Assembly (NCBI GenBank): GCA_963712115.1
Contig: CAVQGX010000043.1
Location: 32,001-96,000, forward strand
DNA: 64,000 nucleotides
Direction of reading: 5' to 3'
Origin: an uncultured delta proteobacterium
GTDB lineage: Bacteria > Desulfobacterota > Syntrophobacteria > BM002
Below, one piece after another: positions 7,973-47,054 of this stretch (its first letter is position 1; every line of letters begins with the position of its first letter). The notes under the pieces were generated by a model. That model searched no databases. It was given only the letters and a program-made list of their open reading frames with translations, and was not told the DNA's origin. Position numbers and translations under genes: made by a program.

Positions 7973-8713
7973 TTATCTTTTGCTTCTTTTGAGGCGCCGC
8001 TCGCTGCTTCTCTGGCGCTTACGCTCTTTATCCTTTTTCCTCCTCTCTCTTCTCATTGGATCAGGGTCCCTGGCGGGGTCAAGCAAAAAAGAACCAATCA
8101 TTTCCGTTACATCCACTTTGCGAGGCTTAGGGGCTTTCGGTCGTGAGACCTTAGTGGGCTTGGGAGATTCGCGGAGAGGCGGGCCACTCAGGAAGGGGGG
8201 AGGGAGAGTTCTTACCAAATAGAGGAATTCGCCACAAAGAGAAAAGGCGTGGCCTTTATCGTGGGCCTGAGCCGCATGTATGGTCAAAAGTATCGGTTTG
8301 GGGTCACGACGTCTACCAATACGCAAGGCTATTTCCTCTGTTGTGGCCAAGGGCACATAGGGACGGCCTGCCGGCCTGAGCCCATGCTTGAGGATCACGG
8401 GGTAAGCCTTTCTTCTTGCGGCGTAAAAGAGCAATCGAGGCGGGACAGTGGTTGAACTTATCTGCTCCCTCGGTTGTTTGGGTTTTATATAATTTTCCTC
8501 TAGGGTGAAGGCTGACTCAAATTGGGAGTAAGCCAATTCTTGCAGATGGCTCAAACGGATGTGCTTCAAGCCTTCTTCCTCATGAAGGGCCCACAGGAGC
8601 TCTTTGATAGGGAGGGAGCCATCATTGTCCAAAAATAGCCCGAATTCATCAGGTCGGTAGAGGAGGATGTACTCGATGATTTTTCCTAGTTCCTGAAGCT
8701 GGTATTTCCTCAA
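7973..8713 (-). CDS. RNA 2'-phosphotransferase (KptA/Tpt1)-like protein, divergent
   Basis: PDEFGLFLDNDG, ILKHGLRP.GRPYVPL and IGRRRDPKPILLTI match the family layout; basic C-terminal tail. Confidence 0.7.
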   Translation of the reverse strand: MRKYQLQELGKIIEYILLYRPDEFGLFLDNDGSLPIKELLWALHEEEGLKHIRLSHLQELAYSQFESAFTLEENYIKPKQPREQISSTTVPPRLLFYAARRKAYPVILKHGLRPAGRPYVPLATTEEIALRIGRRRDPKPILLTIHAAQAHDKGHAFSLCGEFLYLVRTLPPPFLSGPPLRESPKPTKVSRPKAPKPRKVDVTEMIGSFLLDPARDPDPMRRERRKKDKERKRQRSSERRLKRSKR

Positions 8714-8772
8714 TGTTTGGTCCCAGAGTTCTGTGCAAGCAAATTGTTGGTCAATTTATCTACCTTTTATTC

Positions 8773-8801
8773 TTGACACAATCCCGCCTATTCTCTATGG
8801 T
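8773..8801 (+). promoter_or_regulatory. sigma70 promoter of the attenuated cluster
   Basis: TTGACA-17 nt-TATGGT. Confidence 0.7.
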
Positions 8802-8843
8802 ATAGCATCATTCATCCGAAAGGCAAGGAGTCGGGAGTACTTC

Positions 8844-8927
8844 ATGGCCTTCTCCGCGAGACAGACCGTCCTCCAGAGATATTATTACTTTTTTTATTAT
8901 TTTAGTGGGGAGACGTCTGTCCACTAG
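8844..8927 (+). CDS. Phe/Tyr-rich attenuator leader peptide (27 aa)
   Basis: MAFSARQTVLQRYYYFFYYFSGETSVH*; GGAG RBS 6 nt upstream; 8 consecutive Tyr/Phe codons at 8880-8903. Confidence 0.85.
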   Translation: MAFSARQTVLQRYYYFFYYFSGETSVH

Positions 8928-8985
8928 CCCTGTTCAACCTATAGAATCGAGGCCGGGGGCAGACTCAACTGCCTGCGGCTTTTTT
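8903..8985 (+). promoter_or_regulatory. transcription attenuator (1:2, 2:3 antiterminator, 3:4 terminator)
   Basis: 1:2 TAGTGGG/TCCACTA; 2:3 GTCTGTCCACTAGCC/GGCCGGGGGCAGAC; 3:4 GCCG-GGGGCAG/CTGCCT-G-CGGC followed by T6. Confidence 0.8.
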
Positions 8986-8997
8986 GTCTGCAAAGAG

Positions 8998-9023
8998 GCC
9001 GCCACATGAAAGCGGCTTTTTTT
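8998..9023 (+). terminator. second, weaker terminator-like hairpin
   Basis: GCCGC-9 nt-GCGGC followed by T7. Confidence 0.5.
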
Positions 9024-9193
9024 GTTTGATTCTGGCCTCGAAAGAGTTTTTTGTGGAGCTTAAGCCTGGACCATCTAAGGTGCGAATTTTTTGATATTGA
9101 CAAAATCTAAGAAACACGGGAAAGGAGGTGACACCCCATCCACATTCGGTGTAAGAGATTATGATGCCATATGACCTAGAGGAGGGAAAATCA

Positions 9194-10354
9194 ATGAAGA
9201 TAAAGGGAAGATCGATATGGATAGCGCTGGCGTTAACCATCTCACTTGTTTTGGTATTTTCGTGCGCTAAAGAGAAAGAGCCTTATAAAGTGGGCGCCGT
9301 TTTCTCAGCCACTGGCCGTGCCTCGTTCCTGGGTGAACCCGAAAAAAAGACTGTCGAGATGATCGCCGAGGCAATAAACAAGGTTGGTGGTATCAATGGC
9401 CATCGACTGGAGGTCATACTCTATGATGACGAAAGTGACGAAACCAAAAGCGTCCTTGCGGTTAAACGGCTAATTAAGAAAGACAATGTCCCCGTGATCA
9501 TCGGACCCAGCCTCAGTGGTAACACTATGGCGGTGATCAAAGTTGCGAATGATGAGCAGATCCCCTTGGTTTCCTGTGCGGCCAGCAACAAGATTGTGAC
9601 TCCGGTGGCAGAGCGAAAGTGGGTCTTCAAGGTACCGCAGTCGGATAGCCATGCGGTTGAAAAAATTTATGATTATCTGCTGAAAAATGGCATGACTAAG
9701 ATTGCCATCATGAGCGTTTCCACTGGGTTCGGTGCCAGCGGTCGCGAAGAACTGCTGCGACTAGCTCCTGAAGTTGGCATAGAGATACTGGCGGACGAAC
9801 GCTATGGCCCTAAGGATACTGATATTACCGCTCAACTTACTCGCATCCGCGGCACCGGAGCACAGGCAATTGTCAACTGGTCTGTGGGACCCACCCAGGT
9901 TCTGGCAGTAAAAAACTGGAAAGATCTGGGAATGACATCCATTCCGTTCTTTCAGAGTCACGGCTTTGGGAGTCACAAAAACATCGAGCTAGCGGCAGGT
10001 GCCGCCGAAGGCGTATTTTGTCCTCTGGGCAAGGTCAATATTCCTCTACTTGTTGCTGATGACGATCCACAAAAGAAGGTAATAATGCTTTACAACGAAG
10101 CCTATGAGCAAAAGTACAATGAACCCATATCGTCCTTTGGCGGGCATGCCTGGGATTCGCTGAACCTAGTCATCGATGCCATGAGGAGTGTGGGACCCGA
10201 TTCAGCTAAAATTAGGGACTACATCGAGAACCGACAAAAATTCATCGGTCAGCACGGCGTGTTCAATTTCTCTCCCACCGATCACAATGGCCTTACCAAG
10301 GAGGCCTTTGTAATGGTAGTGGTGAAGGAAAACACTTGGGCCTTGGCTCCTTAG
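9194..10354 (+). CDS. HAAT/LIV-family ABC transporter substrate-binding lipoprotein
   Basis: Signal peptide ending in FSC; GGINGHRLEVILYDDESD; GGAGG RBS before MKIKGRS. Confidence 0.9.
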   Translation: MKIKGRSIWIALALTISLVLVFSCAKEKEPYKVGAVFSATGRASFLGEPEKKTVEMIAEAINKVGGINGHRLEVILYDDESDETKSVLAVKRLIKKDNVPVIIGPSLSGNTMAVIKVANDEQIPLVSCAASNKIVTPVAERKWVFKVPQSDSHAVEKIYDYLLKNGMTKIAIMSVSTGFGASGREELLRLAPEVGIEILADERYGPKDTDITAQLTRIRGTGAQAIVNWSVGPTQVLAVKNWKDLGMTSIPFFQSHGFGSHKNIELAAGAAEGVFCPLGKVNIPLLVADDDPQKKVIMLYNEAYEQKYNEPISSFGGHAWDSLNLVIDAMRSVGPDSAKIRDYIENRQKFIGQHGVFNFSPTDHNGLTKEAFVMVVVKENTWALAP

Positions 10355-10380
10355 AGTTCAATAAGAATGCGATGGCGATG

Positions 10381-10415
10381 GAAGCCTCTCCAGTCCTTTG
10401 GTCAGGAGAGGCTTT
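10381..10415 (+). terminator. stem-loop after the binding-protein gene (mRNA stabiliser or terminator)
   Basis: AAGCCTCTCC...GGAGAGGCTT. Confidence 0.55.
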
Positions 10416-10430
10416 CTGTTGAAGATTGCT

Positions 10431-10788
10431 TAGCCCGGATGTTTCATGAATCCGCCTAAGGCGGACCACGGATATGGTCGTCCTTCTCTCCGAGCTGTAG
10501 GCTCTACGAGCCCGAGGCCGTGCGTCCTCGGGTGTCGGCCCCTGCGACGTACCATTCAGGTACGCCTCGGCTTCGATCTTGGATTTGGGATTTCGGATCT
10601 CGGATTTTTGAGTACAATTGGTGATATAGAACTTAACAGTTCAGATCTCACCATTTGCTCTCTGGTTCTCGCGAACTCTTCAGCAAATTTTAAATCCGCA
10701 TTCCGCAATCCGCATTCCGCAATCGTCGACCCGGTGGCACGTCCATCTTCGTGGTCTCGTGACACCAATTCATGAAACATCCGGGCTA
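10431..10788. mobile_element. MITE-like non-autonomous element, copy 1
   Basis: Perfect 21-bp terminal inverted repeat TAGCCCGGATGTTTCATGAAT; near-identical copy at 23879-24195; no transposase. Confidence 0.85.
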
Positions 10789-10820
10789 GAACTGGACAAA
10801 AGCTTCAAGTTGTTGTTGCT

Positions 10821-11723
10821 ATGGAAAGAATTTCCTTAATAGGACAGCTCACTCAGTATCTTTTCACTGGAATCACCGTGGGAAGCATTTACGCTTTGGT
10901 GGCCGTGGGCTTTAATATCATCTACAACGTTACAGAAATAATTAACTTCGCCCAGGGCGAGTTTGTCATGCTGGGCGGGCTTATTATGGTCTTTTTCACC
11001 GCTGCGGCTAAACTGCCTCTGCCAATAGCTTTTGTTCTGACAGTCACGGCGGTCACCGGTGTGGGAGTTTTGATGGAGAGGTTTACCATTAACCCACTCA
11101 AAAATGCCACCGTATTGACGATGATTATCGTCACCATCGCTGTTTCAATTCTCTTTAAGGGAATTGCTATGTTTGTTTGGGGCAAAGATCCGTATATTAT
11201 CCCACCATTTAGCGGAAGCGAACCAATATTCATCCTCGGAGCAGCTATTCAAACCCAGACATTATGGGTGCTGCTCATAACTGCGGTAGTGGTAGTGCTG
11301 CTGACCCTCTTTTTTAAGAAAACACGATATGGTAAAGCCATGCTGGCATGTGCCGATGATCCCGAAGCGGCTCGCCTAGTAGGCATTAGAGTTAACATTA
11401 TGATTTTAATTTCTTTTGCCTTGAGTGCGGCCATTGGTGCAGTTGCGGGAGCCATAATCACTCCCATATCCCTGATGGAATACGACCGAGGTGCCCTTTT
11501 AGCCTTAAAGGGTTTTGGCGCTGCTGTGATGGGTGGCTTGGGAAGTTTTTATGGAGCAGTGGTGGCTGGTATTTTTCTTGGAATTATCGAATCCCTATGC
11601 GCTGGTTTTGTTTCCTCAGGCTACAAGGATGCTGTAGCGCTTCTTCTACTGCTCTTGGTTTTATACGTTCGTCCAAGTGGTTTGTTTGGCAATGTAGAGG
11701 CGAGCAAAATAAAGGAGTTCTAG
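10821..11723 (+). CDS. livH: LIV-type ABC permease (LivH-like)
   Basis: GSIYALVAVG...INFAQGEF and A.LVGI motifs; multiple TM helices. Confidence 0.85.
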   Translation: MERISLIGQLTQYLFTGITVGSIYALVAVGFNIIYNVTEIINFAQGEFVMLGGLIMVFFTAAAKLPLPIAFVLTVTAVTGVGVLMERFTINPLKNATVLTMIIVTIAVSILFKGIAMFVWGKDPYIIPPFSGSEPIFILGAAIQTQTLWVLLITAVVVVLLTLFFKKTRYGKAMLACADDPEAARLVGIRVNIMILISFALSAAIGAVAGAIITPISLMEYDRGALLALKGFGAAVMGGLGSFYGAVVAGIFLGIIESLCAGFVSSGYKDAVALLLLLLVLYVRPSGLFGNVEASKIKEF

Positions 11724-11733
11724 TACTTAGGAC

Positions 11734-12690
11734 ATGCAGAAATCCAATCTAAAAATGCTTTTTTGCTTGATTATCTTTCTTGCCCTGTTTCCGGCGGTGG
11801 TTTTTAATGTGAGGGCAATTGGCCACTATCTCGACGTGATGATATTTGTCGGTATCTACAGTTTAATAAACATGGGACTAAGCCTTCTCATGGGTTATGC
11901 GGGTCAGATCTCCCTTGGACACGCAGCCTTTTTTGGTCTGGGAGCTTACACTTCAGGGATATTATGCACAAAACTTTCCCTGTCTCCATGGCTAGCCATG
12001 GTTGCCGGCGTTTTCCTGACAGCTCTGGTTGCATACATTGTGGGCGTTCCGTCGCTGAAACTAAAAGGGCACTATCTTGCCATGGCCACCCTTGGTTTTG
12101 GTGTTATCGTCTACATTTTTTTCAATGAGGAGGTGGCCCTCACCGGTGGTCCCTCTGGATTTTCAGACATTCCGGGGTTAACCATCTTTGGTTTAGACCT
12201 AAATAATGATCTCTATTACTATATCCTGGTTTGGTCGCTGGTGTTGCTTACCCTGGTTTTCTCGCTCAATGTGATTAATTCCCGTATAGGCAGGGCCTTG
12301 CGTTCTTTGCACGACAGTGAAGTTGCAGCAGACGCAATGGGGGTTGAAACCTCGAGATTCAAAGTCATCATTTTTGTCTTAAGCGCTGCATATGCCTCCC
12401 TTGCCGGAAGTCTCTACACCCATTACGTAGGTTTCTTGAGCCCCAGTTCTTTTGATCTCTTCCTTTCTATAAAACTGGTAATGATGGTAGTGGTGGGTGG
12501 CATGCATAACATCTGGGGAGCGCTTCTCGGTACCTGGCTGCTTACTTTTTTGGGGAACGAGTGGCTTCATGTTTTCCGCGATTTTGATATTCTAGTCTAT
12601 GGAGCTGTTCTCCTGGCTATTGTAATGTTTCTGCCTGAAGGTTTGGTTGATCTAACTCCGAAAATGAGACGGTTATGGAAGCGAAGCTGA
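11734..12690 (+). CDS. livM: LIV-type ABC permease (LivM-like)
   Basis: GYAGQISLGHAAFFGLGAY, LKGHYLAMATLG and TGGPSG motifs. Confidence 0.85.
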   Translation: MQKSNLKMLFCLIIFLALFPAVVFNVRAIGHYLDVMIFVGIYSLINMGLSLLMGYAGQISLGHAAFFGLGAYTSGILCTKLSLSPWLAMVAGVFLTALVAYIVGVPSLKLKGHYLAMATLGFGVIVYIFFNEEVALTGGPSGFSDIPGLTIFGLDLNNDLYYYILVWSLVLLTLVFSLNVINSRIGRALRSLHDSEVAADAMGVETSRFKVIIFVLSAAYASLAGSLYTHYVGFLSPSSFDLFLSIKLVMMVVVGGMHNIWGALLGTWLLTFLGNEWLHVFRDFDILVYGAVLLAIVMFLPEGLVDLTPKMRRLWKRS

Positions 12691-12812: not shown

Positions 12813-13607
12813 ATGGCTTCTGAGAATTTCAACACTTTCCTGCGCGTAGAGGACCTGCGCAAATCATTTGGTGGCGTGCGAGCTCTAAAGGGGTTAAGCT
12901 TCACGGTAGCTTCCGGAATGATCAAGGCAATTATCGGACCAAACGGGGCGGGAAAGACAACACTATTCAATATAATTAGTGGGGTTTTCCCACCCAACAA
13001 TGGATCCATTATCTTTGAAGGTGTGCCTATCGAGGGCAGGAAGTCCCGGGAGATTGCCCGCCTAGGTGTTTCCCGGACTTTTCAAAACGTGGAAGTATTT
13101 GGTCGTATGACTGTGCTGGAAAATGTAATGGTGGGAAGGCACATCCAGAGTCGGGCCGGAATAATCAGTACAGGTCTCAAACTGCCTTGGATGAGGAGGG
13201 AGGAGCGACAGATCCGGAACGGTGCAAGGGATTACCTGGAATTCGTAGGGCTAGAACACAAAGCAGGCGAGTTAGCTGGTAATCTGCCTTTAGGGGAACA
13301 AAAGCTTCTTGAGATAGCCCGAGCATTGGCCACAGAACCAAAAATACTGTTGCTGGACGAGCCAGCTGGGGGGCTGAATACCAGAGAGACTGAAGAGTTG
13401 GCGGCATTGATCCGGCGGATTCTGGAAAGGGGAATCACAGTAGTGTTGGTCGAGCACGACATGAATCTTGTAATGGACATTTCGGACGAGATCGTTGTCA
13501 TGAACTTTGGTGAAAAAATCGCTGAAGGCAAGCCGAAACAAATAAAGAATGATCCCGTGGTGGTCGAAGCTTATTTAGGGGAAGAGGTTGATTATTCAGA
13601 TCTCTAG
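12813..13607 (+). CDS. livG: LIV-type ABC ATPase (LivG-like)
   Basis: [24 protein letters not shown] and AYLG. Confidence 0.9.
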   Translation: MASENFNTFLRVEDLRKSFGGVRALKGLSFTVASGMIKAIIGPNGAGKTTLFNIISGVFPPNNGSIIFEGVPIEGRKSREIARLGVSRTFQNVEVFGRMTVLENVMVGRHIQSRAGIISTGLKLPWMRREERQIRNGARDYLEFVGLEHKAGELAGNLPLGEQKLLEIARALATEPKILLLDEPAGGLNTRETEELAALIRRILERGITVVLVEHDMNLVMDISDEIVVMNFGEKIAEGKPKQIKNDPVVVEAYLGEEVDYSDL

Positions 13608-13721: not shown

Positions 13722-14450
13722 ATGCTAACACTTAAAAGTGTCCACACTTACTACGGCAATATTCACGCTCTTAGGGGTGTTTCTCTTCATGTAAACCAAG
13801 GCGAAATAGTGACATTAATAGGCGCCAACGGAGCCGGTAAGACTACGGTTTTAAAAACAATTTCCGGAATTACCCCTGCCAGTCGCGGTTCCATTACTTT
13901 CGAAGGGAGGGACTTAACTAGGGTGGCAGCTGAGGAGATCGTCCGGGCCGGCATTTCTCACGTTCCAGAAGGACGGAAGGTCTTTTCCACCCTAAGCTTG
14001 CGAGATAACCTTGAAATGGGCGGATTTATCCGTAGGGACAAGAAAGAAGTACAAGCGGATATGGATCGTTTCAGAGAGAAGTTTCCCATTCTCTCTGACC
14101 GATGGAATCAGATGGCAGGTACCCTTAGTGGTGGTGAACAACAAGTCTTGGCTATAACTCGAGCCTTAATGGCGAGGCCAAGGCTTCTAATACTGGACGA
14201 ACCTTCCATGGGTCTTTCACCTTTGCTAGTCAAGGAAACGTTTAAAATCATAAAAACATTGCGAGAAGAGGGAACCACCATTTTGCTCATCGAACAGAAC
14301 GCCCGTGCCGCCCTTCACATAGCAGATCGTGGCTATGTGCTGGAAACTGGCAAAATCGTCCTCCAGGGGAAATGCCGGATGCTTCTCGAGCACGAAGAAG
14401 TAAAGCGGGCCTATCTCGGCAAAGGCTATCGGGAAGTTTGGGAGGACTGA
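13722..14450 (+). CDS. livF: LIV-type ABC ATPase (LivF-like)
   Basis: [21 protein letters not shown] and LDEPSMGL. Confidence 0.9.
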   Translation: MLTLKSVHTYYGNIHALRGVSLHVNQGEIVTLIGANGAGKTTVLKTISGITPASRGSITFEGRDLTRVAAEEIVRAGISHVPEGRKVFSTLSLRDNLEMGGFIRRDKKEVQADMDRFREKFPILSDRWNQMAGTLSGGEQQVLAITRALMARPRLLILDEPSMGLSPLLVKETFKIIKTLREEGTTILLIEQNARAALHIADRGYVLETGKIVLQGKCRMLLEHEEVKRAYLGKGYREVWED

Positions 14451-14655: not shown

Positions 14656-15960
14656 ATGAAGATTTGGGATGCGGATTATGAATGTATGCCACGGGACGAG
14701 CTAGCCCAGTTGCAGCTTGAGCGCCTACAGGCAACGCTCAATCGGGTTTACAAGAACGTCGCTTTTTACCGGAAGAAATTTGATGAGATTGACTTTGAGC
14801 CTGAGGACCTTGTTGAGCTGAATGATCTGGGGAAACTGCCTTTCACCTGCAGCAGGGATCTCAGTGATGCTTACCCCTATGATCTTTTCGCCGTTCCCTT
14901 GCGAGAGGTGGTAAGGGTCCATTCTTCCTCAGGTGCCACCAAGCCAGTTGTTGTAGGTTATACTAGACAGGACCTTAAAAATTGGAGCGAGCTTGTAGCC
15001 CGCGTTCTTACCGCCGGAGGCGTCACGGCTGACGATGTGGTACAAGTGACGCTGAATTATGGACTTCTCACCGGAGGCTTGGGACTCCACTATGGAGCCG
15101 AGCTCATCGGTGCGTCAGTACTTCCCACCTCAGTTGGGCGTACTGAACGGCAGGTAAAAATTATGCAAGACTACCGTACCACGGCTTTAGTGGCTACTCC
15201 TTCTTATGCTCTGGTTATAGCTGATCGCATGGAAAGGATGGGCGTTGATGCGAAGACACTTACGCTCAAGTTTGCCATGCTTGCCGGGGAGCCATGGTCT
15301 GAGGAGATGCGACAGGAAATTGAAGCAAGATTGTACGTCAAGGCTACGGACAATTACGGCCTCAGCGAGATAATGGGGCCTGGGGTGGCTGGCGAATGTC
15401 TTTATCAGGCCGGAATGCATCTGAACGAGGATCATTTCATTTTTGAGGTAGTGGATCCAAAAACGGGAGAGAATTTGCAGCCCGGGGAAGTTGGGGAACT
15501 GATCATAACAACTGTTACCAAAGAGGCATTTCCTCTGATCAGGTTTCGTACAGGTGATCTCTGCTCTATGCAATCTGAGACTTGCCAGTGCGGTCGGAGT
15601 CTGGCCCGCATGAGCAGGGTGCTCGGCCGTACCGACCAGGTAATCATAGTAAAAGGCATAAATATCATTCCGAGTCGCGTGGGTGATCTTCTTGAGGAAG
15701 TCCTAGGAAGCAAGCCCCCTTACCAGTTGGTGGTGGACAGAAAAGGCCACCTAGACAGCCTTACGGTGCAAGTTGAGGTTTCTGAGGACCTATTCTTTGA
15801 CAAAATGCGGGAGCAGCGCTCCTTGATAGAGAGAATGGGTGAAAAGGTCGCGGGGGGAATCGGAGTTACCCCAAAAATTATTTTGGTTGAACCTGGGTCC
15901 ATCAAGCGGGAGAAAGAGACTGCCTTCAAAGTGGTGGATTACAGGAAACTATCCAAATGA
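14656..15960 (+). CDS. paaK: phenylacetate-CoA ligase family protein
   Basis: VVRVHSSSG, YGLLTGGLGLHYG, GEPWSE, YGLSEIMGPG and RFRTGD. Confidence 0.9.
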   Translation: MKIWDADYECMPRDELAQLQLERLQATLNRVYKNVAFYRKKFDEIDFEPEDLVELNDLGKLPFTCSRDLSDAYPYDLFAVPLREVVRVHSSSGATKPVVVGYTRQDLKNWSELVARVLTAGGVTADDVVQVTLNYGLLTGGLGLHYGAELIGASVLPTSVGRTERQVKIMQDYRTTALVATPSYALVIADRMERMGVDAKTLTLKFAMLAGEPWSEEMRQEIEARLYVKATDNYGLSEIMGPGVAGECLYQAGMHLNEDHFIFEVVDPKTGENLQPGEVGELIITTVTKEAFPLIRFRTGDLCSMQSETCQCGRSLARMSRVLGRTDQVIIVKGINIIPSRVGDLLEEVLGSKPPYQLVVDRKGHLDSLTVQVEVSEDLFFDKMREQRSLIERMGEKVAGGIGVTPKIILVEPGSIKREKETAFKVVDYRKLSK

Positions 15961-16139
15961 CATTGTACTTGTAGTCCGTGGCCTGTTGTCAAGAGCGGCA
16001 TAGGGCATAGAGCATGAGGCATAGGGCAAAATCTCAAATTCAAAACCGCTGTGCTCTTGACGCTCTGCGCTTTGCGGCCAACGAAGTGAGCTCAACTGAC
16101 TACGGACCGGGAAAAATTAGCAAACTGAGAGGTAAAAAA

Positions 16140-17999
16140 ATGCATGAACTGCTGGCAGCCGAACCGGGTAGCAAGAGATTACTCCTGGGAAACGAGGCTA
16201 TTGTCCGAGGGGCTCTTGAGGCAGGTATCTCCTTTGCCACCACCTACCCCGGAACTCCCTCCTCGGAGATCGGCGACAATTTCTATCGAATATCCCAAGA
16301 AACAGATATTTATTTCGAGTATTCGGTAAATGAGAAAGTAGCACTAGAAACTGCAGCTGCGGCTTCGACTTCTGGTCTGCGCACCATGTGCAGCATGAAG
16401 CATGTTGGCTTGAATGTAGCGTCCGATGCTCTTATGACTTTGGCTTATGTAGGGGTAAAGGGAGGCATGGTCATAGTCAGTGCTGACGATCCCTCAATGC
16501 ACTCCAGCCAAAACGAACAGGACAACCGTTTCTACGCCAGATTCGCCGGAATACCTATGCTCGAGCCAGCCAATTCCCAGGAAGCCTTGGATATGGCCCG
16601 GGCCGCTTTTGCGCTGTCCGAGTCCCATGGTATTCCAGTCCTGCTGCGCACCACTACGCGAGTAAATCACAGCCGGTCCGTTGTAGAGGTGGGACCATTG
16701 CAGGACTCGAGGGTGAAAGGGAGCTTCATAAAGGATCCCCTTAACCTCGTGCCGGTGCCCATGGTGGCAAGAAGGCTTCACGTTGAACTACTCGAAAAGC
16801 TAAAAAAATTACGAGTGGAGGCTGATAGTTCGTCTTTCAACAGAGTTGAAGGGGAGGGGACCTGGGGAGTGGTAACCAGTGGGGTGAGTTACAACTATGT
16901 CAAGGATGCCATTCGAGAATTAAATATTGCCGACCAAGTTCAGGTGCTAAAACTGGGAATGACCTATCCATTTCCAGAGGCACTCTGCTTGGACTTCATT
17001 GGAAAAGTTAAGAAAGTTCTGGTGGTTGAAGAGTTGGAGCCCTTCTTGGAAGACATGCTCAAGGTGACAGCTCAGGAACAAGGGCTGACAATCAAAATTA
17101 AGGGTAAGGGTGATGAATTACTGCCCCGTTACTTCGAATTCGATCCAGTCCTGGTCAAGTCAGCCGTTGCCCGGTTTTTCCAACTGGATTATGAGCCACC
17201 GAAGGTGGAAATGAGATCGGATCTTCCTCAGCGACCGCCTAATCTTTGCGCGGGTTGTCCGCACAGAGCCAGTTATTATGCGGTGAGACAGGCATTTGGC
17301 GAAGGGGGTGCTATTTACCCATCTGACATAGGTTGTTACACTCTGGGGTTACTGCCGCCTCTCGCTGCAGCCGACTATCTCCTTTGTATGGGATCCAGTG
17401 TTTCCAGCGCTGGCGGTTTTTCCAAGGCTCAGGACCAGCCTGTAGTGGCTTTTGTTGGCGATTCGACCTTCTTCCACTCGGGTGTTACCGGGCTTATTAA
17501 TGCTGTCCAGAATGAACACAATTTTATCCTGGTAATTTTGGACAACGGCACAACCGCCATGACAGGACAGCAGCCCCATCCTGGGGTGGAACTCACTGAA
17601 GAAGGGCGCCAGCCTCCCAAAGTGGATCTTAAGGCATTAGTTCGAGGTTGCGGTGTAGATCGGGTAGTTGTGGTTAATCCCCTGCAGGTTGAAAAGACAG
17701 TCGCCACTATAAAAGAGGTTATGCAAGACAAACCTGGTGTAAAGGTGGTCATCTCAAAATCACCCTGTCCGCTATTCGAAAGACGTGTCACTGGCAAGAA
17801 ACAGAAGGTTGTTTTTAGGGTGACTAACGAGTGCGATATGTGTAGAAGGTGCCTGGATGAGCTCGGATGTCCGGCCTTTACCTACTGTGAGGATGAGAAT
17901 GAGTGCGCTTTTATTGCAATCGATGAACATTTATGCAGCGGTTGCAGCGTCTGTAAGCAAATTTGTCACGCAATAAAGCCGAAGAAGAAGAGTGCTTAA
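16140..17999 (+). CDS. iorA: indolepyruvate:ferredoxin oxidoreductase alpha subunit
   Basis: LLGNEAIVRG, YPGTPSSEI, MKHVGLNVA, RPPNLCAGCPH, SDIGCY and GDSTFFH; C-terminal ferredoxin domain. Confidence 0.92.
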   Translation: MHELLAAEPGSKRLLLGNEAIVRGALEAGISFATTYPGTPSSEIGDNFYRISQETDIYFEYSVNEKVALETAAAASTSGLRTMCSMKHVGLNVASDALMTLAYVGVKGGMVIVSADDPSMHSSQNEQDNRFYARFAGIPMLEPANSQEALDMARAAFALSESHGIPVLLRTTTRVNHSRSVVEVGPLQDSRVKGSFIKDPLNLVPVPMVARRLHVELLEKLKKLRVEADSSSFNRVEGEGTWGVVTSGVSYNYVKDAIRELNIADQVQVLKLGMTYPFPEALCLDFIGKVKKVLVVEELEPFLEDMLKVTAQEQGLTIKIKGKGDELLPRYFEFDPVLVKSAVARFFQLDYEPPKVEMRSDLPQRPPNLCAGCPHRASYYAVRQAFGEGGAIYPSDIGCYTLGLLPPLAAADYLLCMGSSVSSAGGFSKAQDQPVVAFVGDSTFFHSGVTGLINAVQNEHNFILVILDNGTTAMTGQQPHPGVELTEEGRQPPKVDLKALVRGCGVDRVVVVNPLQVEKTVATIKEVMQDKPGVKVVISKSPCPLFERRVTGKKQKVVFRVTNECDMCRRCLDELGCPAFTYCEDENECAFIAIDEHLCSGCSVCKQICHAIKPKKKSA

Positions 18000-18183: not shown

Positions 18184-18765
18184 ATGGAAAGCTGGCGTAT
18201 TTTTTTTACTGGTGTAGGCGGGCAGGGTACCTTGCTGGCCACCAGGGTGTTAGGTGAAGCGGCGCTAGTCTCTAATATTCCTGTGGTGGTGAGTGAGGTT
18301 CACGGTATGGCCCAGCGCGGAGGGGTGGTCGAGTCGGCAGTGGTGCTGGGCGAGGTACAGAGTCCAGTTATATCAGATGGTGAAGTAGACATCCTTATGG
18401 CCTTTGAACCGTTAGAGGCTTTGAGGGCAGTACGAAAGTGCTCGTCTCGTAGCCTGGTGATTTGCAACACTAGCCCTGTAGCTCCTTTTAGTGTATCCAG
18501 TGGCAGGGATCGATATCCAGATGTCTCTAGTATGATGAAAGCTATATGGAGCCAAGTAAGCAATCTCATTGCCTATGACGCCAGAGCTCTGGCCCGCGAA
18601 GCCGGCTCGGAGCTCTCGGTAAATATTGTGATGCTTGGAACCCTTATGCGCCATGCAACAATGCCCTTCGATGAGAAGGTGGTAAAGAAGGTTCTCAATA
18701 CTAGGACAAAGAAATCTTTTCTGGAGATAAATCTGAAGGCATTTGATTTGGGTTATGAGGTATGA
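18184..18765 (+). CDS. iorB: indolepyruvate:ferredoxin oxidoreductase beta subunit
   Basis: GVGGQG, SEVHGMAQRGG and FEPLEALR. Confidence 0.92.
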   Translation: MESWRIFFTGVGGQGTLLATRVLGEAALVSNIPVVVSEVHGMAQRGGVVESAVVLGEVQSPVISDGEVDILMAFEPLEALRAVRKCSSRSLVICNTSPVAPFSVSSGRDRYPDVSSMMKAIWSQVSNLIAYDARALAREAGSELSVNIVMLGTLMRHATMPFDEKVVKKVLNTRTKKSFLEINLKAFDLGYEV

Positions 18766-19283
18766 TTAGACAAAAAACGTTAATCTTACTAGGATTACCA
18801 CTCCTCTGGCTTGTTCTTGCCAACGCCACTTGCAACAACAGAAAGGGCGAGGAAGATTTGGTCAACTCTTATAAGGTGGTGCGATTCCATTTGTCAGAGT
18901 GTCGCAATATGGGTGCAGATAGCTTGGATCCAGTTGGCCTGGAGGAGGCCATGCGTCTCACTGAGGAGGTGGGTGGAATGTTGGACAAGGGCAATTGGAC
19001 CCAGGCGAGTGAGGCCATTGCTCAATTGGAACAAACCGTCGGGTTTCTCCTCGAGCAGATGAAAAGCTGGGACCCAGATGAAGACGGCCTGAGTAACTAC
19101 GCAGAGTATATGTTGTACGGGACCTCTTGGGCAGATGGTGACACCGATGGGGATGGATATTTCGATGGTAGTGAAATTCTACATTTCGAAACGGATCCTC
19201 TGGATCACTGTGGAGTACCAATAGGTTTCCCTCTGGAGACTACAGTCCAACGTGACTGCCCGGCACTGGAGAAACTGAGGTAG
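18762..19283 (+). CDS. exported protein or lipoprotein with Ca-binding DxDxDG (bacterial TSP3-like) repeats
   Basis: Signal peptide ending in ATC; DPDEDGLSN and DTDGDGYFDGSE; ATGA overlap with the iorB stop. Confidence 0.65.
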   Translation: MIRQKTLILLGLPLLWLVLANATCNNRKGEEDLVNSYKVVRFHLSECRNMGADSLDPVGLEEAMRLTEEVGGMLDKGNWTQASEAIAQLEQTVGFLLEQMKSWDPDEDGLSNYAEYMLYGTSWADGDTDGDGYFDGSEILHFETDPLDHCGVPIGFPLETTVQRDCPALEKLR

Positions 19284-22071: not shown

Positions 22072-22905
22072 ATGTTGGATCCAGAACAACTTCTATATGT
22101 GTACGAGTTGAAGGGGGGAGTTCCTCCGCCCTTTTTGGATCTCAAAGGGTTATTAGGAGTTTGGCCGGAGGCAGATTATACCTATTTGTTCTTTACCAGC
22201 CCTGCCGATGCCACCTTAGAGTTGTTTTTTCGCGAGCATCCTGAGTATAGCTTGACTCGTCACTATCGACTCCCCTATGGGCATTGGCAGCAGCTTGCGG
22301 TGAAGGAGCCACTGGTTATCGATAGGTTCAAAATCATCACTAGTAAGCAGTCGGTCAAGTTGTCAGCGGGTGAGATTCTCCTATGGATTGATCCTGGAGT
22401 TATATTCGGATCGGGCCTTCATCCAACTACCCGCGGTTGCTTGCGAGCGTTGTCAAGTCTTTATTCTCAGGCTGCACCGGTTAAAGTCTTAGACCTGGGC
22501 ACCGGTACTGGTATACTGGCGATAGCAGCTGCGAAACTTGGAGCTGAGCAGGTGGATGCCGTGGATTTGAATCCAATGGCCATTTCTACTGCAGCAGATA
22601 ATTGCGAGCGCAACGGGGTTAAAGATGCTGTAAGATTGATTCAGGGAGATGCTCGCCACCAATTGCCTGAAGCGGAACTTTTGTGCGTTAATATACACTT
22701 TGACTTCCTTGAGACTTTTTTGGGAAGCTCTGCTGTTTGCCGTTACCGTTGGGCCATAGTCGGCGGCTTCCTTAAAGAAAAACTACCCGAGGTTCGAGTT
22801 TTACTACCATCTTGTGCCGTGTTAAAAAAGCCGGTGCTGGAGGAAGAAGGCTGGGTTACGCTGCTATTGGAGATAGAAAAGGATAAGGCAGCCCACTCTC
22901 ACTAA
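22072..22905 (+). CDS. prmA: ribosomal protein L11 methyltransferase-like protein
   Basis: IDPGVIFGSGLHPTT and VLDLGTGTGILAIAAAKLGA. Confidence 0.75.
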   Translation: MLDPEQLLYVYELKGGVPPPFLDLKGLLGVWPEADYTYLFFTSPADATLELFFREHPEYSLTRHYRLPYGHWQQLAVKEPLVIDRFKIITSKQSVKLSAGEILLWIDPGVIFGSGLHPTTRGCLRALSSLYSQAAPVKVLDLGTGTGILAIAAAKLGAEQVDAVDLNPMAISTAADNCERNGVKDAVRLIQGDARHQLPEAELLCVNIHFDFLETFLGSSAVCRYRWAIVGGFLKEKLPEVRVLLPSCAVLKKPVLEEEGWVTLLLEIEKDKAAHSH

Positions 22906-29412: not shown

Positions 29413-31407
29413 TTGTTAATGGTTGAAAAAAAACAAAACGAAGTTATGCAAGAGGCCGAAGAGCAAGTAGGCCAGGTAGAAAAGGTCGAGGCGACTGCGA
29501 AAGAGGAAACTGAGGCTCAGGAGTCTGCAGAGGATACCTTGGAAACAACAGAGGACCAAGAACCTCAGCAGGTGGATGTCGAGGCTGATGCTCAAGATGA
29601 AACTGAAACTCAGGATTCCGAGGAAGTTGTTGTGGAGTTGGCAGCGGATACTGAAGCACAGCCTGTAGACAGTCAGGTTGCTGTCGAAGAAAATGATCAG
29701 GTCGACACCATTAAGGAGGAATCCTTCCAGGAGCTTTATGAGGAAAGTCTCAAGAGCATCAAGGAAGGTGAGGTTGTGCGTGGTAATATTATCCAAGTGA
29801 CCGACGATTATGTGATGGTAGATATAGGCTACAAATCGGAAGGCCAGATCCGCATCTCTGAATTCACAGATGAAGAGGGTGCTGTATCCGCCAAAGTCGG
29901 CGACGAAGTGGACGTTTTGCTAGAATACCACGAGGACGAAAATGGCGAAATAGTGCTCTCCAAAGAGAAGGCCGCTAAGATTAAGGTATGGGACGAAATT
30001 AGCAAAATTTATAAAGATGACGGTGTAATCGAGGGCCGAATTGTTTCCAAGGTAAAAGGTGGGCTTTCAGTTGACATTGGCGTGCAGGCTTTCTTACCTG
30101 GCTCCCAGGTTGATCTGCGACCAGTTCGTAATCTTGATAGTCTAATTGGTCAGCAGTGTCAGTTCAAGATTTTGAAATATAACAAGAAAAGGCGAAACGT
30201 GGTGCTCTCACGCAGGGTCCTCCTGGAGAAAGAGAGGGAGGAACTCAAGTCCGATACTCTAGATAGGCTAGAAGAGGGAAAAGTCCTTGAAGGTGTTGTA
30301 AAAAACATCACAGAGTATGGAGTTTTTGTAGATCTCGGTGGAATCGATGGTTTGCTTCACATCACCGACATGAGTTGGGGCCGAGTCGGGCACCCATCTG
30401 AGATGTGTTCCATAGGTGATTCCATCGAAGTAATGGTGCTGAACTTTGATCCCGAAAAAGAACGGGTCTCTTTGGGTCTAAAACAGTTGTCAGAGGACCC
30501 GTGGAGTTCGGTTGATGCACGATATCCTGAGGGCGGACGGGTAACAGGGCGCGTGGTAAGCCTTACGGATTATGGGGCTTTCGTGGAACTAGAGCCAGGC
30601 ATTGAAGGGCTGATTCATGTGTCTGAAATGTCCTGGACCGCGAAAGTTCGGCATCCGTCCAAGGTCGTTTCAGTAGGCGATATTGTCGAGGCCGTGGTTC
30701 TCAATCTGAACAAAGAGAACAAACGGATCAGTTTGGGTATGAAACAGGTGGAGCCCAATCCGTGGGACGTCATTGGTGAGAAGTATCCAGTGGGCACTAC
30801 CATTCAGGGGAAAATTAAAAATATAACAGATTTTGGACTTTTTATTGGCATAGATGAAGGTATAGACGGTCTTGTACATATCTCTGATCTTTCCTGGACT
30901 AAACGGATCAAACACCCCTCCGAGCTCTACAAAAAAGGAGAAGAACTACAGGCTATTGTCTTGAATATAGATAAAGAAAACGAGCGTTTTTCTCTGGGAG
31001 TCAAACAACTGAATGCCGATCCATGGGAAGAGATTCCAAAGAGATACCCAGTGGGAAGTTCTGTCGTGGGCACGGTGACCAATGTTACGGATTTTGGTCT
31101 CTTCGTCGAAATTGAAGAAGGAATAGAGGGGTTGGTTCACGTTTCAGAAATAAGTAAAGAAAAAATCAAGACACCTGTAGGGCTTTTTCAAGAAGGTCAA
31201 GAGGTAACCGCCAAGGTGGTAAATATAGGCAGGGAAGAACGCAAGATTGGGCTTTCTCTCAAGCGACTGGAAGAGGAAGAAGAAAAAACTCGTTATTACG
31301 ATTACATAGATAGCCCCAAGGCAGCTACCTCGAATCTCGGTCAGCTACTTAAAGAGGAGTTGGAAGGACGTGCTGACAACCTTTTGGGGGGGGAGGACAA
31401 GGAATAG
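29413..31407 (+). CDS. rpsA: 30S ribosomal protein S1 with a long acidic N-terminal extension
   Basis: Repeated S1 domains (GIDGLLHITDMSW, GIEGLIHVSEMSW); cmk-rpsA synteny. Confidence 0.95.
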   Translation: MLMVEKKQNEVMQEAEEQVGQVEKVEATAKEETEAQESAEDTLETTEDQEPQQVDVEADAQDETETQDSEEVVVELAADTEAQPVDSQVAVEENDQVDTIKEESFQELYEESLKSIKEGEVVRGNIIQVTDDYVMVDIGYKSEGQIRISEFTDEEGAVSAKVGDEVDVLLEYHEDENGEIVLSKEKAAKIKVWDEISKIYKDDGVIEGRIVSKVKGGLSVDIGVQAFLPGSQVDLRPVRNLDSLIGQQCQFKILKYNKKRRNVVLSRRVLLEKEREELKSDTLDRLEEGKVLEGVVKNITEYGVFVDLGGIDGLLHITDMSWGRVGHPSEMCSIGDSIEVMVLNFDPEKERVSLGLKQLSEDPWSSVDARYPEGGRVTGRVVSLTDYGAFVELEPGIEGLIHVSEMSWTAKVRHPSKVVSVGDIVEAVVLNLNKENKRISLGMKQVEPNPWDVIGEKYPVGTTIQGKIKNITDFGLFIGIDEGIDGLVHISDLSWTKRIKHPSELYKKGEELQAIVLNIDKENERFSLGVKQLNADPWEEIPKRYPVGSSVVGTVTNVTDFGLFVEIEEGIEGLVHVSEISKEKIKTPVGLFQEGQEVTAKVVNIGREERKIGLSLKRLEEEEEKTRYYDYIDSPKAATSNLGQLLKEELEGRADNLLGGEDKE

Positions 31408-31459: not shown

Positions 31460-32359
31460 GTGCGCAAACGTTCCGTCTTGCTGGCGGGAAGCATATTAGT
31501 TCTGATCCTTGTTGCCCTTCTTGGCAGCATTGCCTGGTTTTCGCACTTGCGTGGCCGTGAAGCAGGACTGATGTTTGGCGAAAAGGTTGGCGTCCTTGAG
31601 GTGAAGGGAGTAATAGCAAACGTCCAACCAACTATAGAAGAGCTGGCGAAGTTTAGAAGAGATGGTTCGGTAAAGGCCGTAGTAGTAAGGATTGAGTCTC
31701 CCGGCGGTGGTGTAAGCCCCTCCCAGGAACTTTACCAGGAAATAAGACGCACGGTGCGGGAGAAGCCGGTGGTGGTGTCAATGGGTTCTGTTGCCGCCTC
31801 CGGGGGCTACTACATCGCTTGCGCTGCCCAAAAGATCTATGCCAACCCGGGCACTATCACCGGCAGTATAGGCGTGATTCTACAGTTCACCAATTTCGAG
31901 GAACTTTTAAGAAAGATTGGCTTCCGCATGGAAGTCGTAAAAAGCGGCCCCTACAAGGATGTGGGCAATCCCGGGCGCGAGATGACCGCTGAGGAGAAAG
32001 CCTATCTCCAAGAAATGGTTGACAATGTCCATCAGCAATTCGTTCGAGACGTGGCTAGAGGAAGAGGCATGAAGGTAGAGAAAGTGCGAGAGGTTGCCGA
32101 CGGCCGTATCTTTACAGGAGAGCAGGCCATGGAATTGGGGCTGGTGGATGAACTGGGAAATCTTAAGGATGCCATAAATGCGGCTGCAAAAATGGCCGCA
32201 ATTGAAGGTGAACCGAAGATTGTTTACCCAGAAAAGGAAAAGAAATCTGTATTTGACTATTTGTTCGATCGAATCACAGAGAAGATTGCCAATAACGTCC
32301 AGCCCTATATGGGACTCTTACTGCTCCCGCCTCTTCCTGGGAAAGCCAGCCTTTCCTAA
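31460..32359 (+). CDS. sppA: signal peptide peptidase SppA (36K type)
   Basis: RIESPGG, AASGGYY and TGSIGV. Confidence 0.92.
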   Translation: MRKRSVLLAGSILVLILVALLGSIAWFSHLRGREAGLMFGEKVGVLEVKGVIANVQPTIEELAKFRRDGSVKAVVVRIESPGGGVSPSQELYQEIRRTVREKPVVVSMGSVAASGGYYIACAAQKIYANPGTITGSIGVILQFTNFEELLRKIGFRMEVVKSGPYKDVGNPGREMTAEEKAYLQEMVDNVHQQFVRDVARGRGMKVEKVREVADGRIFTGEQAMELGLVDELGNLKDAINAAAKMAAIEGEPKIVYPEKEKKSVFDYLFDRITEKIANNVQPYMGLLLLPPLPGKASLS

Positions 32360-45938: not shown

Positions 45939-47054
45939 TTACCACTTGAACTGAGTGGTGGTTCTCCAGGTGGTCATGGCCAACCGGTAGTCGTCAATGT
46001 GCTCATGCCGGAATTCCAGTTCGGCCTTTTCGAAGAACTTCTCCCAGCCGATTCGCTCTATCCATTCACCCACACGCTCGTAACGGTTGGCGTCGCTGGC
46101 GTAAAGATCCACAATCTTTTTTATGGTCTTGACCGTGGTGGGCCAGCGTGGCGGCTCGTTGGGAATGTAAGGCACAGCCAGCTTGGAAAACTTGGGAGCA
46201 CAGCGCGAGTTAGAAACCTTACCGCCTACCCATAAGGCAATGCCATCTCCCTCGGCGCTCGCTAGGGGCATAGCTGGACACATGGTGTAGCAGTTGCCGC
46301 AAAACATGCAACGCTCGTTTTTTACCGCCACGGTTTTGAGCTCGCCTTCCTTGGCCGGTTTGATGGCTGCGGTGGGACAAGCAGCGATGGCCAGCGGAAT
46401 CTCACAGACCTTGCCGACTCGTTCATGCTCAATGAAAGGCGGCTTTCTGTGAACGCCGAGGATGGCGATATCCGAGCAGTGCACGGCGCCACACATGTTG
46501 AGACAACAGGCCAGAGAAATCCGCACCTGGGCCGGAAGACGCATGCCACAGAAGTCATCATAGAGCTCATCCAGTACCGCTTTGACGATACCGGAAGCGT
46601 CGATGGCCGGGGTGTGGCAGTGGAGCCAGCCCTGGGTGTGAACGATGTTGGTAACACCGGCGCCAGTACCGCCAATGGGGAACTTGTTGCTGCCACCGGC
46701 GAACTTCCGGCCCTTGAGGTCCTTGATCAGCGGCTGCAGCTTGGCCTTGTTGTCGACCATGAACTCCACATTATTTCGAGTCGTCCAGCGAACATAGCCT
46801 TCGCAGTGCTTGTCGGCGATGTCGCAGATTTCCCGGATGATGTCAACGCTCATGAGTCGGCAGCCGCCCACCCTGACGGTGTAGACTTCCGCACCGGTTT
46901 CCGAGACATGGACGAGCACCCCCGGCTCGAGAATGTCGTGATATTTCCACTTGCCGTAGTTTTCCTTGATCACAGGCGGGAAAAACTGCTCGTAGTGCGG
47001 CGGCCCGATATCAGTGATTCGGTCTTTCATCGGTTCATTAGGATCATATGCCAT
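45939..47054 (-). CDS. dsrB: dissimilatory sulfite reductase beta subunit
   Basis: [35 protein letters not shown] and CMFCGNC. Confidence 0.97.

Follow-up and report, generated by a model that had tools for sequence, protein, structure and literature searches.

The window analysed here is a stretch of 64,000 nucleotides (nt) from an uncultured delta proteobacterium (GTDB lineage Desulfobacterota; Syntrophobacteria; BM002), corresponding to positions 32,001 to 96,000 of contig CAVQGX010000043.1 in assembly GCA_963712115.1. The element under study is a leader region that separates a divergent Tpt1/KptA-like gene from an operon encoding an ABC transporter with a LivK-type binding protein, a PaaK-like aryl-acetate--CoA ligase and both subunits of an indolepyruvate:ferredoxin oxidoreductase (IOR). 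This leader contains a short open reading frame (ORF) with a run of tyrosine and phenylalanine codons, followed by two intrinsic terminators and by helices that compete with them, and it is very probably a ribosome-mediated, leader-peptide transcription attenuator that senses charged tRNA-Tyr and, in the subclade of this organism, tRNA-Phe as well.

Features of the leader region

An earlier note, made from the letters of the sequence, had described a promoter, a ribosome-binding site and a 27-codon ORF with eight consecutive Tyr or Phe codons upstream of the operon. All three are present where it had placed them (Table 1). A search of all six frames of the 4.9 Mb genome returned this leader as the only instance of a run of at least eight aromatic codons, besides poly-T and a TGG repeat. 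The region thus presents two of the hallmarks of an attenuator, namely a 5' operon leader carrying a short ORF equipped with its Shine-Dalgarno site and start codon, and a cluster of codons for the putative regulating amino acids within that ORF.

Table 1. Features of the leader region and operon in the window, and of five further aromatic leaders in the same genome (operon gene families from Pfam and NCBIfam)
Feature	Position	Strand	Remarks
Tpt1/KptA-like gene	7973-8713	minus	divergent
Leader region	8713-9193		between the Tpt1/KptA-like and binding-protein genes
Sigma-70-type promoter TTGACA-17-TATGGT	8773-8801	plus	-35 at 8773-8778, -10 at 8796-8801; 10/12 matches
Shine-Dalgarno region	8825-8837	plus	AAGGAG 8825-8830, GGGAG 8833-8837 (6 nt 5' of ATG)
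Leader ORF, MAFSARQTVLQRYYYFFYYFSGETSVH	8844-8927	plus	27 codons + stop; stop codon 8925-8927
Control codons TAT TAT TAC TTT TTT TAT TAT TTT	8877-8900	plus	YYYFFYYF; 5 Tyr + 3 Phe, uninterrupted
Segment 1, long form	8858-8882	plus	pairs with 8900-8923, -22.9 kcal/mol; core GACAGAC 8860-8866 : GTCTGTC 8915-8921
Segment 1' (segment 1 of the earlier note)	8902-8912	plus	5' arm of small hairpin 8902-8927, -12.0 kcal/mol
Segment 2, GTCTGTCCACTAGCCC	8915-8930	plus	overlaps stop codon; class-wide equivalent CGGTCTGCCC
Segment 3 (5' arm of T1)	8949-8964	plus	pairs alternatively with segment 2 (antiterminator 2:3), -23.6 kcal/mol
Terminator T1	8949-8985	plus	stem 8949-8962 / 8969-8982, T6 at 8980-8985; -23.3 kcal/mol
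Second antiterminator 4:5	8975-9002	plus	T1 3' arm + U tract (8975-8986) : T2 5' arm (8991-9002); 12 bp, -17.3 kcal/mol
Terminator T2	8990-9027	plus	core GGCCGC 8997-9002 / GCGGC 9012-9016, T7 at 9017-9023; -13.9 kcal/mol
LivK-type periplasmic binding protein (Peripla_BP_6)	9194-10354	plus	first structural gene; lipoprotein-like signal sequence, by eye only
Two ABC permeases	10821-11723, 11734-12690	plus	
Two ABC ATPases	12813-13607, 13722-14450	plus	
PaaK-like aryl-acetate--CoA ligase (AMP-forming)	14656-15960	plus	TIGR02155 E = 4.5e-148, 493 bits, below curated cut-off 646
IorA, IOR alpha subunit	16014-17999	plus	TIGR03336 790 bits, over cut-off
IorB, IOR beta subunit	18184-18765	plus	TIGR03334 198.8 bits, NF005323 205.7 bits, both below cut-offs
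Trp leader MKKNLNRQKNLVNWYWWWYVCVGVYPLPGE, run WYWWWY	contig C7 ~30145-30336	minus	two tandem terminators; upstream of trpE, trpG
Leader MKRRPSPFFCYYYYAMVAIEGAVRAC, run FFCYYYY	contig C7 ~22148-22288	minus	terminator; ADH synthase, dehydroquinate synthase II, chorismate mutase, aroD, aroE
Leader, run FFFFCFF	contig C17 ~46421-46640	plus	625-aa DAHP-synthase/prephenate-dehydratase fusion
Leader, run KYYFYYC	contig C33 109706-109858	minus	AroFGH-type DAHP synthase
Leader MQFAGFQINFPSGGFFFKKSALWLKR (L147), run GGFFFKK	contig C7 8453-8650	minus	T1 + T2 of the same motif as in the window

Metatranscriptome contigs from four RNA libraries, belonging to four studies, cover the leader and the binding-protein gene, and some of them cross T1 and T2 (8942-9153, X1; 8969-9153, X2). 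Since these contigs carry no information on transcript ends, strand or level, and since DNA carry-over is possible, they were not used as evidence.

Downstream of T2, a block at 9095-9132 is kept in nearly all relatives from the same family. It consists of TATTGACAAAATC and GAAAGGAGGTGAC separated by 17 nt, and resembles a -35 box plus a perfect Shine-Dalgarno site located about 70 nt 5' of the real start codon, but neither a -10 box nor a start codon follows. On contig C26 of the same genome, a paralogous binding-protein gene is preceded by a similar AAGGAGGTGATAC, and GGAAGGAGGCGATAC is found in another family of the class (f2).

Alternative pairings and the proposed mechanism

On folding, the whole leader was more stable than shuffled sequences (z = -2.6 and -2.75). 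The small hairpin, the 2:3 antiterminator and the terminator with its T6 tract, all of them predicted in the earlier note, were recovered at their expected positions, with the folding energies given in Table 1. Three further elements lie beyond that description: a longer 1:2 helix, the second terminator T2, and the 4:5 helix, in which the 3' arm of T1 pairs with the 5' arm of T2. The leader hence also presents intrinsic terminators between the ORF and the first structural gene, and a mutually exclusive antiterminator.

To represent the ribosome, a footprint of 31 nt was forced single-stranded and the leader was folded at equilibrium. The folded leader presented the 1:2 helix and T1 in the absence of a ribosome, and T1 with a ribosome at the stop codon, whereas a footprint over 8883-8913, corresponding to a stall on the last control codons, led to replacement of T1 by the 2:3 antiterminator. 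The upstream arm of the antiterminator is therefore covered at the stop codon and freed by a stall on the late codons only. In this folding of alternative states, a check that the earlier note had proposed, the predicted states switch with ribosome position in the geometry of trpL, pheL and hisL.

These pairings suggest the following model. Transcription would start at the promoter in Table 1, and a ribosome would translate the 27-codon leader peptide. With Tyr and Phe plentiful, the ribosome would reach the stop codon and cover segment 2, so that T1 could form, and any polymerase escaping T1 would meet T2. If no ribosome were loaded, segment 1 would hold segment 2 and both terminators would form. 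A stall on the last Tyr or Phe codons (8892-8900) would instead mask segment 1 and leave segment 2 free to pair with segment 3, blocking T1; the freed 3' arm of T1 could then pair with the 5' arm of T2 and block it too, so that one stalled ribosome would cancel both terminators and polymerase would read into the operon. The two-terminator relay is a model derived from these pairings, and the operon would be derepressed when Tyr or Phe is limiting.

Conservation in the family and the class

A DNA match to the leader was detected in 20 of the 21 other genomes of the window's family, which is the only family in its taxonomic order. Of these 20 regions, 19 retain the leader ORF together with a Tyr-rich run, which reads YYYYYYY in most of them (one region, L019, is partly masked by N). 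The promoter hexamers are retained in nearly all family relatives, and AAGGAG and the ATG are conserved in the family alignments. T1 is paired in 96% of alignment cells, the antiterminators in 88% and the 4:5 helix in 87%. The small hairpin is paired in 80% of cells, as compared to 28-49% in slid controls, and the long 1:2 helix in 74% of cells across 18 family sequences, with its core pairs kept in 15-18 of the 18.

Orthologs of the binding protein (61-70% identity) were identified in 93 of 122 genomes of the class. The 800 nt upstream were fetched for 40 orthologs from five other families. For 25 of them, spread over four of the five families, these regions include a short ORF in which Tyr or Phe codons form a run; it lies 220-510 nt from the gene and is followed by a T run (2/2 in f2, 0/1 in f3, with 364 nt available, 5/7 in f4, 14/22 in f5 and 4/8 in f6). 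One further F-rich ORF lacking a T run was left out of this count. Under the same relaxed criterion, without any demand on position, the background amounted to 10 hits in 98 reverse-strand regions and 8 in as many shuffled ones. Several of the class genomes that carry the leader are complete, G046, G113 and G115 among them. The family and class counts thus bear out the conservation of Phe/Tyr-rich leader ORFs upstream of orthologous operons, a check proposed in the earlier note. Outside the class, an upstream scan of loci found through binding-protein searches (Desulfobacteria-labelled, Verrucomicrobiota, Latescibacterota, Spirochaetia and proteobacterial) gave no convincing leader.

Most of the class leaders present pure Tyr runs, such as YYYYYYY or YYYYGY, with YYYYGYLRRSA as a typical peptide end. 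In family f6 the runs are YYYYYY, FCFYFF and FFFCFF, and within the family alignment Phe codons occur only in the window's subclade. The ancestral signal is thus tyrosine, the three Phe codons of the window are special to its subclade, and some lineages have become all-Phe. This distribution raises the alternative that the element is in effect a sensor of tyrosine only, with the three Phe codons being recent, single-base TAT-to-TTT changes of little or no effect. A parallel may be found in the aroR leader of Corynebacterium glutamicum, with control codons Phe-Tyr-Phe, for which the available portion of PMC11802643 reports that just one of these amino acids influences transcription. A ribosome should stall on any suitably placed hungry codon, however, and the last control codon of the window, the best placed to mask segment 1, is a Phe codon. 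Furthermore, in some class lineages operons of this kind have come under all-Phe runs (FFFCFF), which argues that Phe codons are used as a signal. Sensing of tyrosine alone is consequently a rather unlikely description of the window's leader.

The class leaders share a common architecture. The control-codon run is followed by a segment 2 of the CGGTCTGCCC type just 5' of the stop codon, by a T1 with 5' arm GCCGTGGGCAGACCG and 3' arm CTGCCCACGGC plus Us and, in most class relatives, by a second terminator (GCCGTGG ... CCACGGC plus Us). The 3' arm of T1 is complementary to the 5' arm of T2 in other class lineages too. An alignment of 41 sequences (A2), comprising 18 from the window's family and 23 from other families, was used to assess these helices. 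Two leaders (L062 and L064) were left out because their helix sequences differ; they present the same architecture with unrelated sequences, in which segment 2 GGGGGAGCCTGCGAT faces ATCGCAGGTGATCCCCC, and so lend qualitative support to the structure.

On A2, the combination of T1 and T2 was paired in 89.5% of cells (T1 in 90.6%), with 8 pairs changed on both sides and a covariation score of 0.189. The competing combination of 2:3 and 4:5 was paired in 95.6% of cells (99.0% and 90.8%, respectively), with 7 pairs changed on both sides, three of them in the 4:5 helix, and a score of 0.213. None of 500 shuffles reached the covariation score of either combination, and slid controls were paired in 31-55% of cells. 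As judged from these alignments, the element is conserved well beyond chance, and its competing helices are kept with some compensatory changes.

Several observations weigh against the proposed attenuator. The equilibrium folding with a footprint over 8871-8901, on the early control codons, still yields the small hairpin and T1, so that antitermination at equilibrium is confined to stalls on approximately the last three codons (Tyr, Tyr, Phe). The proposal of the earlier note that a stalled ribosome frees segment 2 thus holds for these last codons and fails for the early ones at equilibrium, where stalls would be effective only with the help of kinetics. A single family member, L020, has lost both the ATG and the run and keeps the terminator part, and 15 of the 40 class orthologs are without a leader by the criterion applied. 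Within the family alone, where the helices hardly vary, covariation does not exceed that of shuffles. The sequences are too similar to be informative, and the class-wide alignment was therefore made; of the covariation that the earlier note had proposed to test for, only the class-wide signal stands. Even there, the shuffle control ignores the relatedness of the sequences, and the covariation amounts to few independent events, mainly between the window's family and the rest. One such event essentially accounts for the largest change, in which a single position in segments 4, 5 and 6 goes from A-U to G-C.

Conservation of the coding features also bears on the nature of the antiterminating factor. 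Were a protein or an uncharged tRNA to drive antitermination, in the manner of TRAP, PyrR or T-box systems, the ORF would be incidental, yet its frame, start codon and codon run are conserved while the surroundings change. A cmscan of 8000-10000 against Rfam, with E-values up to 10, returned unrelated small RNAs as best matches (best E = 0.99), all of them far below gathering scores; none of the Phe_leader, Trp_leader, His_leader, Leu_leader, Thr_leader and T-box models matched at gathering score in that region. Control of this kind is hardly credible here.

Related leaders, operon function and precedents

Short ORFs that combine an amino-acid run with a Shine-Dalgarno site and a T run were sought across the whole genome, and a covariance-model search was made in addition. 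Together they revealed five more aromatic leader attenuators outside the window (Table 1), and the element of the window may hence be regarded as one member of a set responsive to the supply of aromatic amino acids. The ORFs past trpE and trpG on contig C7 were provisionally assigned to trpD, trpC, trpF and trpB (not family-checked). The operon starting with ADH synthase and dehydroquinate synthase II corresponds to the archaeal-type entry to the shikimate pathway. The leader L147 precedes genes for a TPR lipoprotein, a second PaaK-like ligase, an ACT-domain pair and a paralogous ABC transporter, the binding protein of which is 51% identical to that of the window. The scan also returned candidates that were rejected. 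The 10-codon MRSSSSV[LF]SL ORFs (C39 ~64219 and C40 ~11915) lie in near-identical copies of a repeat of at least 400 nt whose downstream region does not resemble that of a terminator-controlled leader, and candidates with Leu runs (C40) and Arg runs (C30) were not leader-like and were dropped.

A covariance model built from A2 (R1; E <= 0.001, with E-values to be taken as rough) had matches in 85 of the 151 genomes sampled evenly from the phylum, spread over 61 of 110 genera. The family defined by R1 comprises an aromatic-rich leader ORF, a segment 2 of the GGTCTGCC type, a T1 5' arm with GGGCAGACC and a second terminator, the 5' arm of which forms a helix with the 3' arm of T1. The window conforms to this definition and scores 122.8 bits, by construction, as it belongs to the seed alignment; the independent members are the matches in its own genome and 29 inspected loci. 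Among these 29 (the 28 best of the phylum search plus L151 from the window's own genome) were 25 Tyr/Phe-rich leaders, often with Trp in addition, two Trp runs, one Val/Ile/Leu-rich leader and one weak instance. The first downstream gene was checked at 25 loci, after dropping L160, L166, L167 and L168 as duplicates or near-duplicates. It encodes ADH synthase at 11 loci, a PLP aminotransferase at 4, DAHP synthase, a LivK-type binding protein and a GNAT-domain protein at 2 each, and shikimate kinase, anthranilate synthase, acetolactate synthase and a protein of unknown function at 1 each. Both binding-protein loci, located elsewhere in the phylum, present Phe-rich leaders. The earlier note had viewed a dual Tyr and Phe attenuator on a transporter/paaK/ior operon as special. 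The link to that operon holds, while the mixture of codons is common on aromatic biosynthesis operons across the phylum according to R1.

The Val/Ile/Leu-rich case (L178, G220:C13 ~96065-96218) is a two-terminator leader whose peptide contains VISLVLIVV, located upstream of the gene for the acetolactate synthase large subunit. Its presence indicates that the two-terminator design is not limited to aromatic amino acids.

The recurrence of this design bears on two further explanations. One holds that the ORF is no sensor, but a small RNA or small-protein gene, or that the terminators are a constitutive pair insulating the operon from the divergent promoter, with the promoter of the operon located further downstream. 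Attenuator-derived small RNAs such as rnTrpL are known (according to the part of PMC6614838 available), a TTGACA at 9097-9102 is conserved downstream of T2, and the RNA-library contigs cover 8942-9153 without indicating transcript starts. The sequence found 17 nt past that TTGACA is GAAAGG, which is not -10-like. Moreover, neither a plain terminator nor a small-protein gene would have any need of the codon run, of a stop codon placed on segment 2 or of the two antiterminator helices, all of which are conserved across the class, and the same design precedes trp and aro operons. This explanation is therefore very unlikely.

The other explanation invokes an arrest peptide akin to TnaC, which would sense free tyrosine and induce a catabolic operon when aromatic amino acids are abundant. 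This would agree with the occurrence of IorAB and PaaK-like ligases in aromatic amino acid breakdown, as described in the accessible text of PMC13285125. The peptide sequence outside the aromatic run varies widely between families, however, the element is built from intrinsic terminators and competing helices rather than from a stall at the stop codon, and the presence of the same leaders on the biosynthetic genes for TrpE, ADH synthase and DAHP synthase fits starvation sensing. Arrest-peptide control is thus highly improbable, and ribosome-mediated attenuation in response to tRNA charging remains our preferred interpretation.

The operon downstream of the leader encodes IOR alpha and beta together with an AMP-forming aryl-acetate--CoA ligase, with the PaaK and IOR beta matches falling below curated cut-offs in spite of strong E-values. 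The same gene order through PaaK, IorA and IorB was observed behind Tyr leaders in two genomes of family f4 (G027 and G033), and, checked as far as PaaK and IorA, also in a genome of family f5 (G113). In a genome of family f6 (G118), a Phe leader is followed by the transporter and the ligase, without ior genes. Paralogous binding-protein genes of the window's own genome (C64, C7 and C26) have no leader directly upstream, the one on C7 being part of a larger cluster with a leader further upstream.

Two stretches of the operon merit separate mention. A gap of 466 nt (10355-10820) separates the binding-protein gene from the first permease gene. The only ORF inside it, of 109 codons (10446-10775), had no match in Pfam, and the gap may be non-coding or a further control point. 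In addition, a 173-aa ORF with a bacterial TSP3 repeat (18762-19283) has a 4-nt overlap with the iorB stop codon, and is for this reason probably co-transcribed.

Among solved structures, those closest to the binding protein (E = 1e-35 to 1e-44) belong to an aromatic-acid group that includes CouP (4jb0), and not to the classical Leu/Ile/Val binders. Only for 4JB0, and not for 3sg0 or 4dqd, could the ligand be tied to the structure; CouP binds ferulate and 4-hydroxyphenylpyruvate, as reported in the available part of PMC3610893. The most likely job of the operon would be salvage, beginning with the import of aromatic acids or amino acids. The PaaK-like ligase would convert aryl-acetates to CoA esters, from which IOR could generate, by reductive carboxylation, aryl-pyruvates, the direct precursors of Tyr and Phe, with transamination as the final step. 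PaaK-type ligases are AMP-forming enzymes that activate acids and are not energy-conserving. An operon turned on when charged tRNA-Tyr or tRNA-Phe is scarce and encoding such a ligase therefore fits a salvage function. Salvage of aryl acids into Tyr and Phe, with the direction of flux deduced from the starvation-type control and the AMP-forming ligase, has about an even chance of being the operon's role, and plain uptake of Tyr and Phe provides a simpler alternative for the transporter part. The occurrence of PaaK and IorAB in catabolic settings too counts against a salvage role, as does the presence of prephenate dehydrogenase (two matches) in the window's own genome, which implies that salvage would not be essential and would come on top of de novo synthesis.

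Leader-peptide attenuation is textbook biology, and tyrosine control is normally reported via repressors or T-boxes. Among classical systems, hisL of Salmonella and E. coli contains seven His codons, and its helices A:B, C:D and E:F alternate with B:C and D:E. As compared by description, and not by sequence, the window shares with hisL a long uninterrupted run of control codons and a chain of over four segments whose alternative helices a single stalled ribosome could switch in relay. It differs in its middle helix, 3:4, which doubles as a terminator with a U tract, so that the chain carries two terminators. The leaders of pheL-pheA and pheM-pheST of E. coli are likewise leader-peptide attenuators. 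They have in common with the window a short leader with an aromatic codon run, the competition of a terminator and an antiterminator, and a readout of tRNA charging. The window lacks sequence or Rfam-model similarity to them, presents a mainly tyrosine signal and two serial terminators, targets transport, PaaK and IOR functions instead of pheA or pheST, and belongs to another host phylum. The available sections of PMC3082878 and PMC11802643 also describe pheL.

The nearest mixed-codon precedent documented, to the extent covered by the available portion of PMC11802643, is the aroR leader upstream of aroF in C. glutamicum (Neshat et al. 2014), an attenuator with three control codons that responds to Phe and not to Tyr. 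Like the window, aroR is a mixed Phe/Tyr leader controlling aromatic metabolism by attenuation; unlike it, it relies on three codons, targets a DAHP synthase and belongs to an unrelated phylum. Serial terminators have been described in Desulfovibrio, where two THI elements precede thiSGHFE as tandem riboswitch-terminator units (in the part of PMC545781 available). Both arrangements have two serial terminators and a tighter off state, but each THI terminator has its own sensor, whereas in the window the 4:5 helix would place both under a single sensor, the ribosome translating the leader ORF. For Methanococcus maripaludis, the accessible text of PMC4162585 cites a route (Porat et al.) that leads from aryl acids to aromatic amino acids by way of IOR. 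There, as in the role implied here, IOR would operate in the biosynthetic direction; the window differs from this archaeal case in that a single attenuated operon encodes IOR, a PaaK-like ligase and a dedicated ABC importer. No leader-peptide control of the M. maripaludis route was found in the open literature. Similarly, neither a Tyr leader nor attenuation of paaK/ior operons was found in the open full-text literature, a scope outside which subscription-only papers and supplements fall, and the available parts of PMC545781, PMC4833913 and PMC2965389 mention neither.

The mechanism is hence that of a classical attenuator, differing in its tyrosine sensing, in the two terminators with a second antiterminator, in the target operon and in the host phylum. 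Somewhat short of probable, and proposed here tentatively, is a broader picture in which a single family of two-terminator leaders would define an aromatic attenuation regulon across the Desulfobacterota, with its Tyr-codon version controlling importer, PaaK-like and IorAB genes in this class. In such a picture, the cluster would mediate starvation-induced, and not catabolic, synthesis of Tyr and Phe from environmental aryl-acetates, and its leader would be the first tyrosine-specific leader-peptide attenuator to be described.

A long Tyr-codon leader conserved across a class provides a clean and testable example of tyrosine sensing by the ribosome, and the one-ribosome, two-terminator relay, a compact device, should combine low leak with full induction. 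In turn, model R1 could serve to annotate many unmarked leaders in Desulfobacterota genomes. For the cluster of LivK-type ABC transporter, PaaK-like ligase and IorAB, which is very common in anaerobes, starvation control supplies a functional clue that argues for biosynthetic salvage of aryl acids, and such salvage would bear on how syntrophs and sediment bacteria spare the cost of making aromatic rings.

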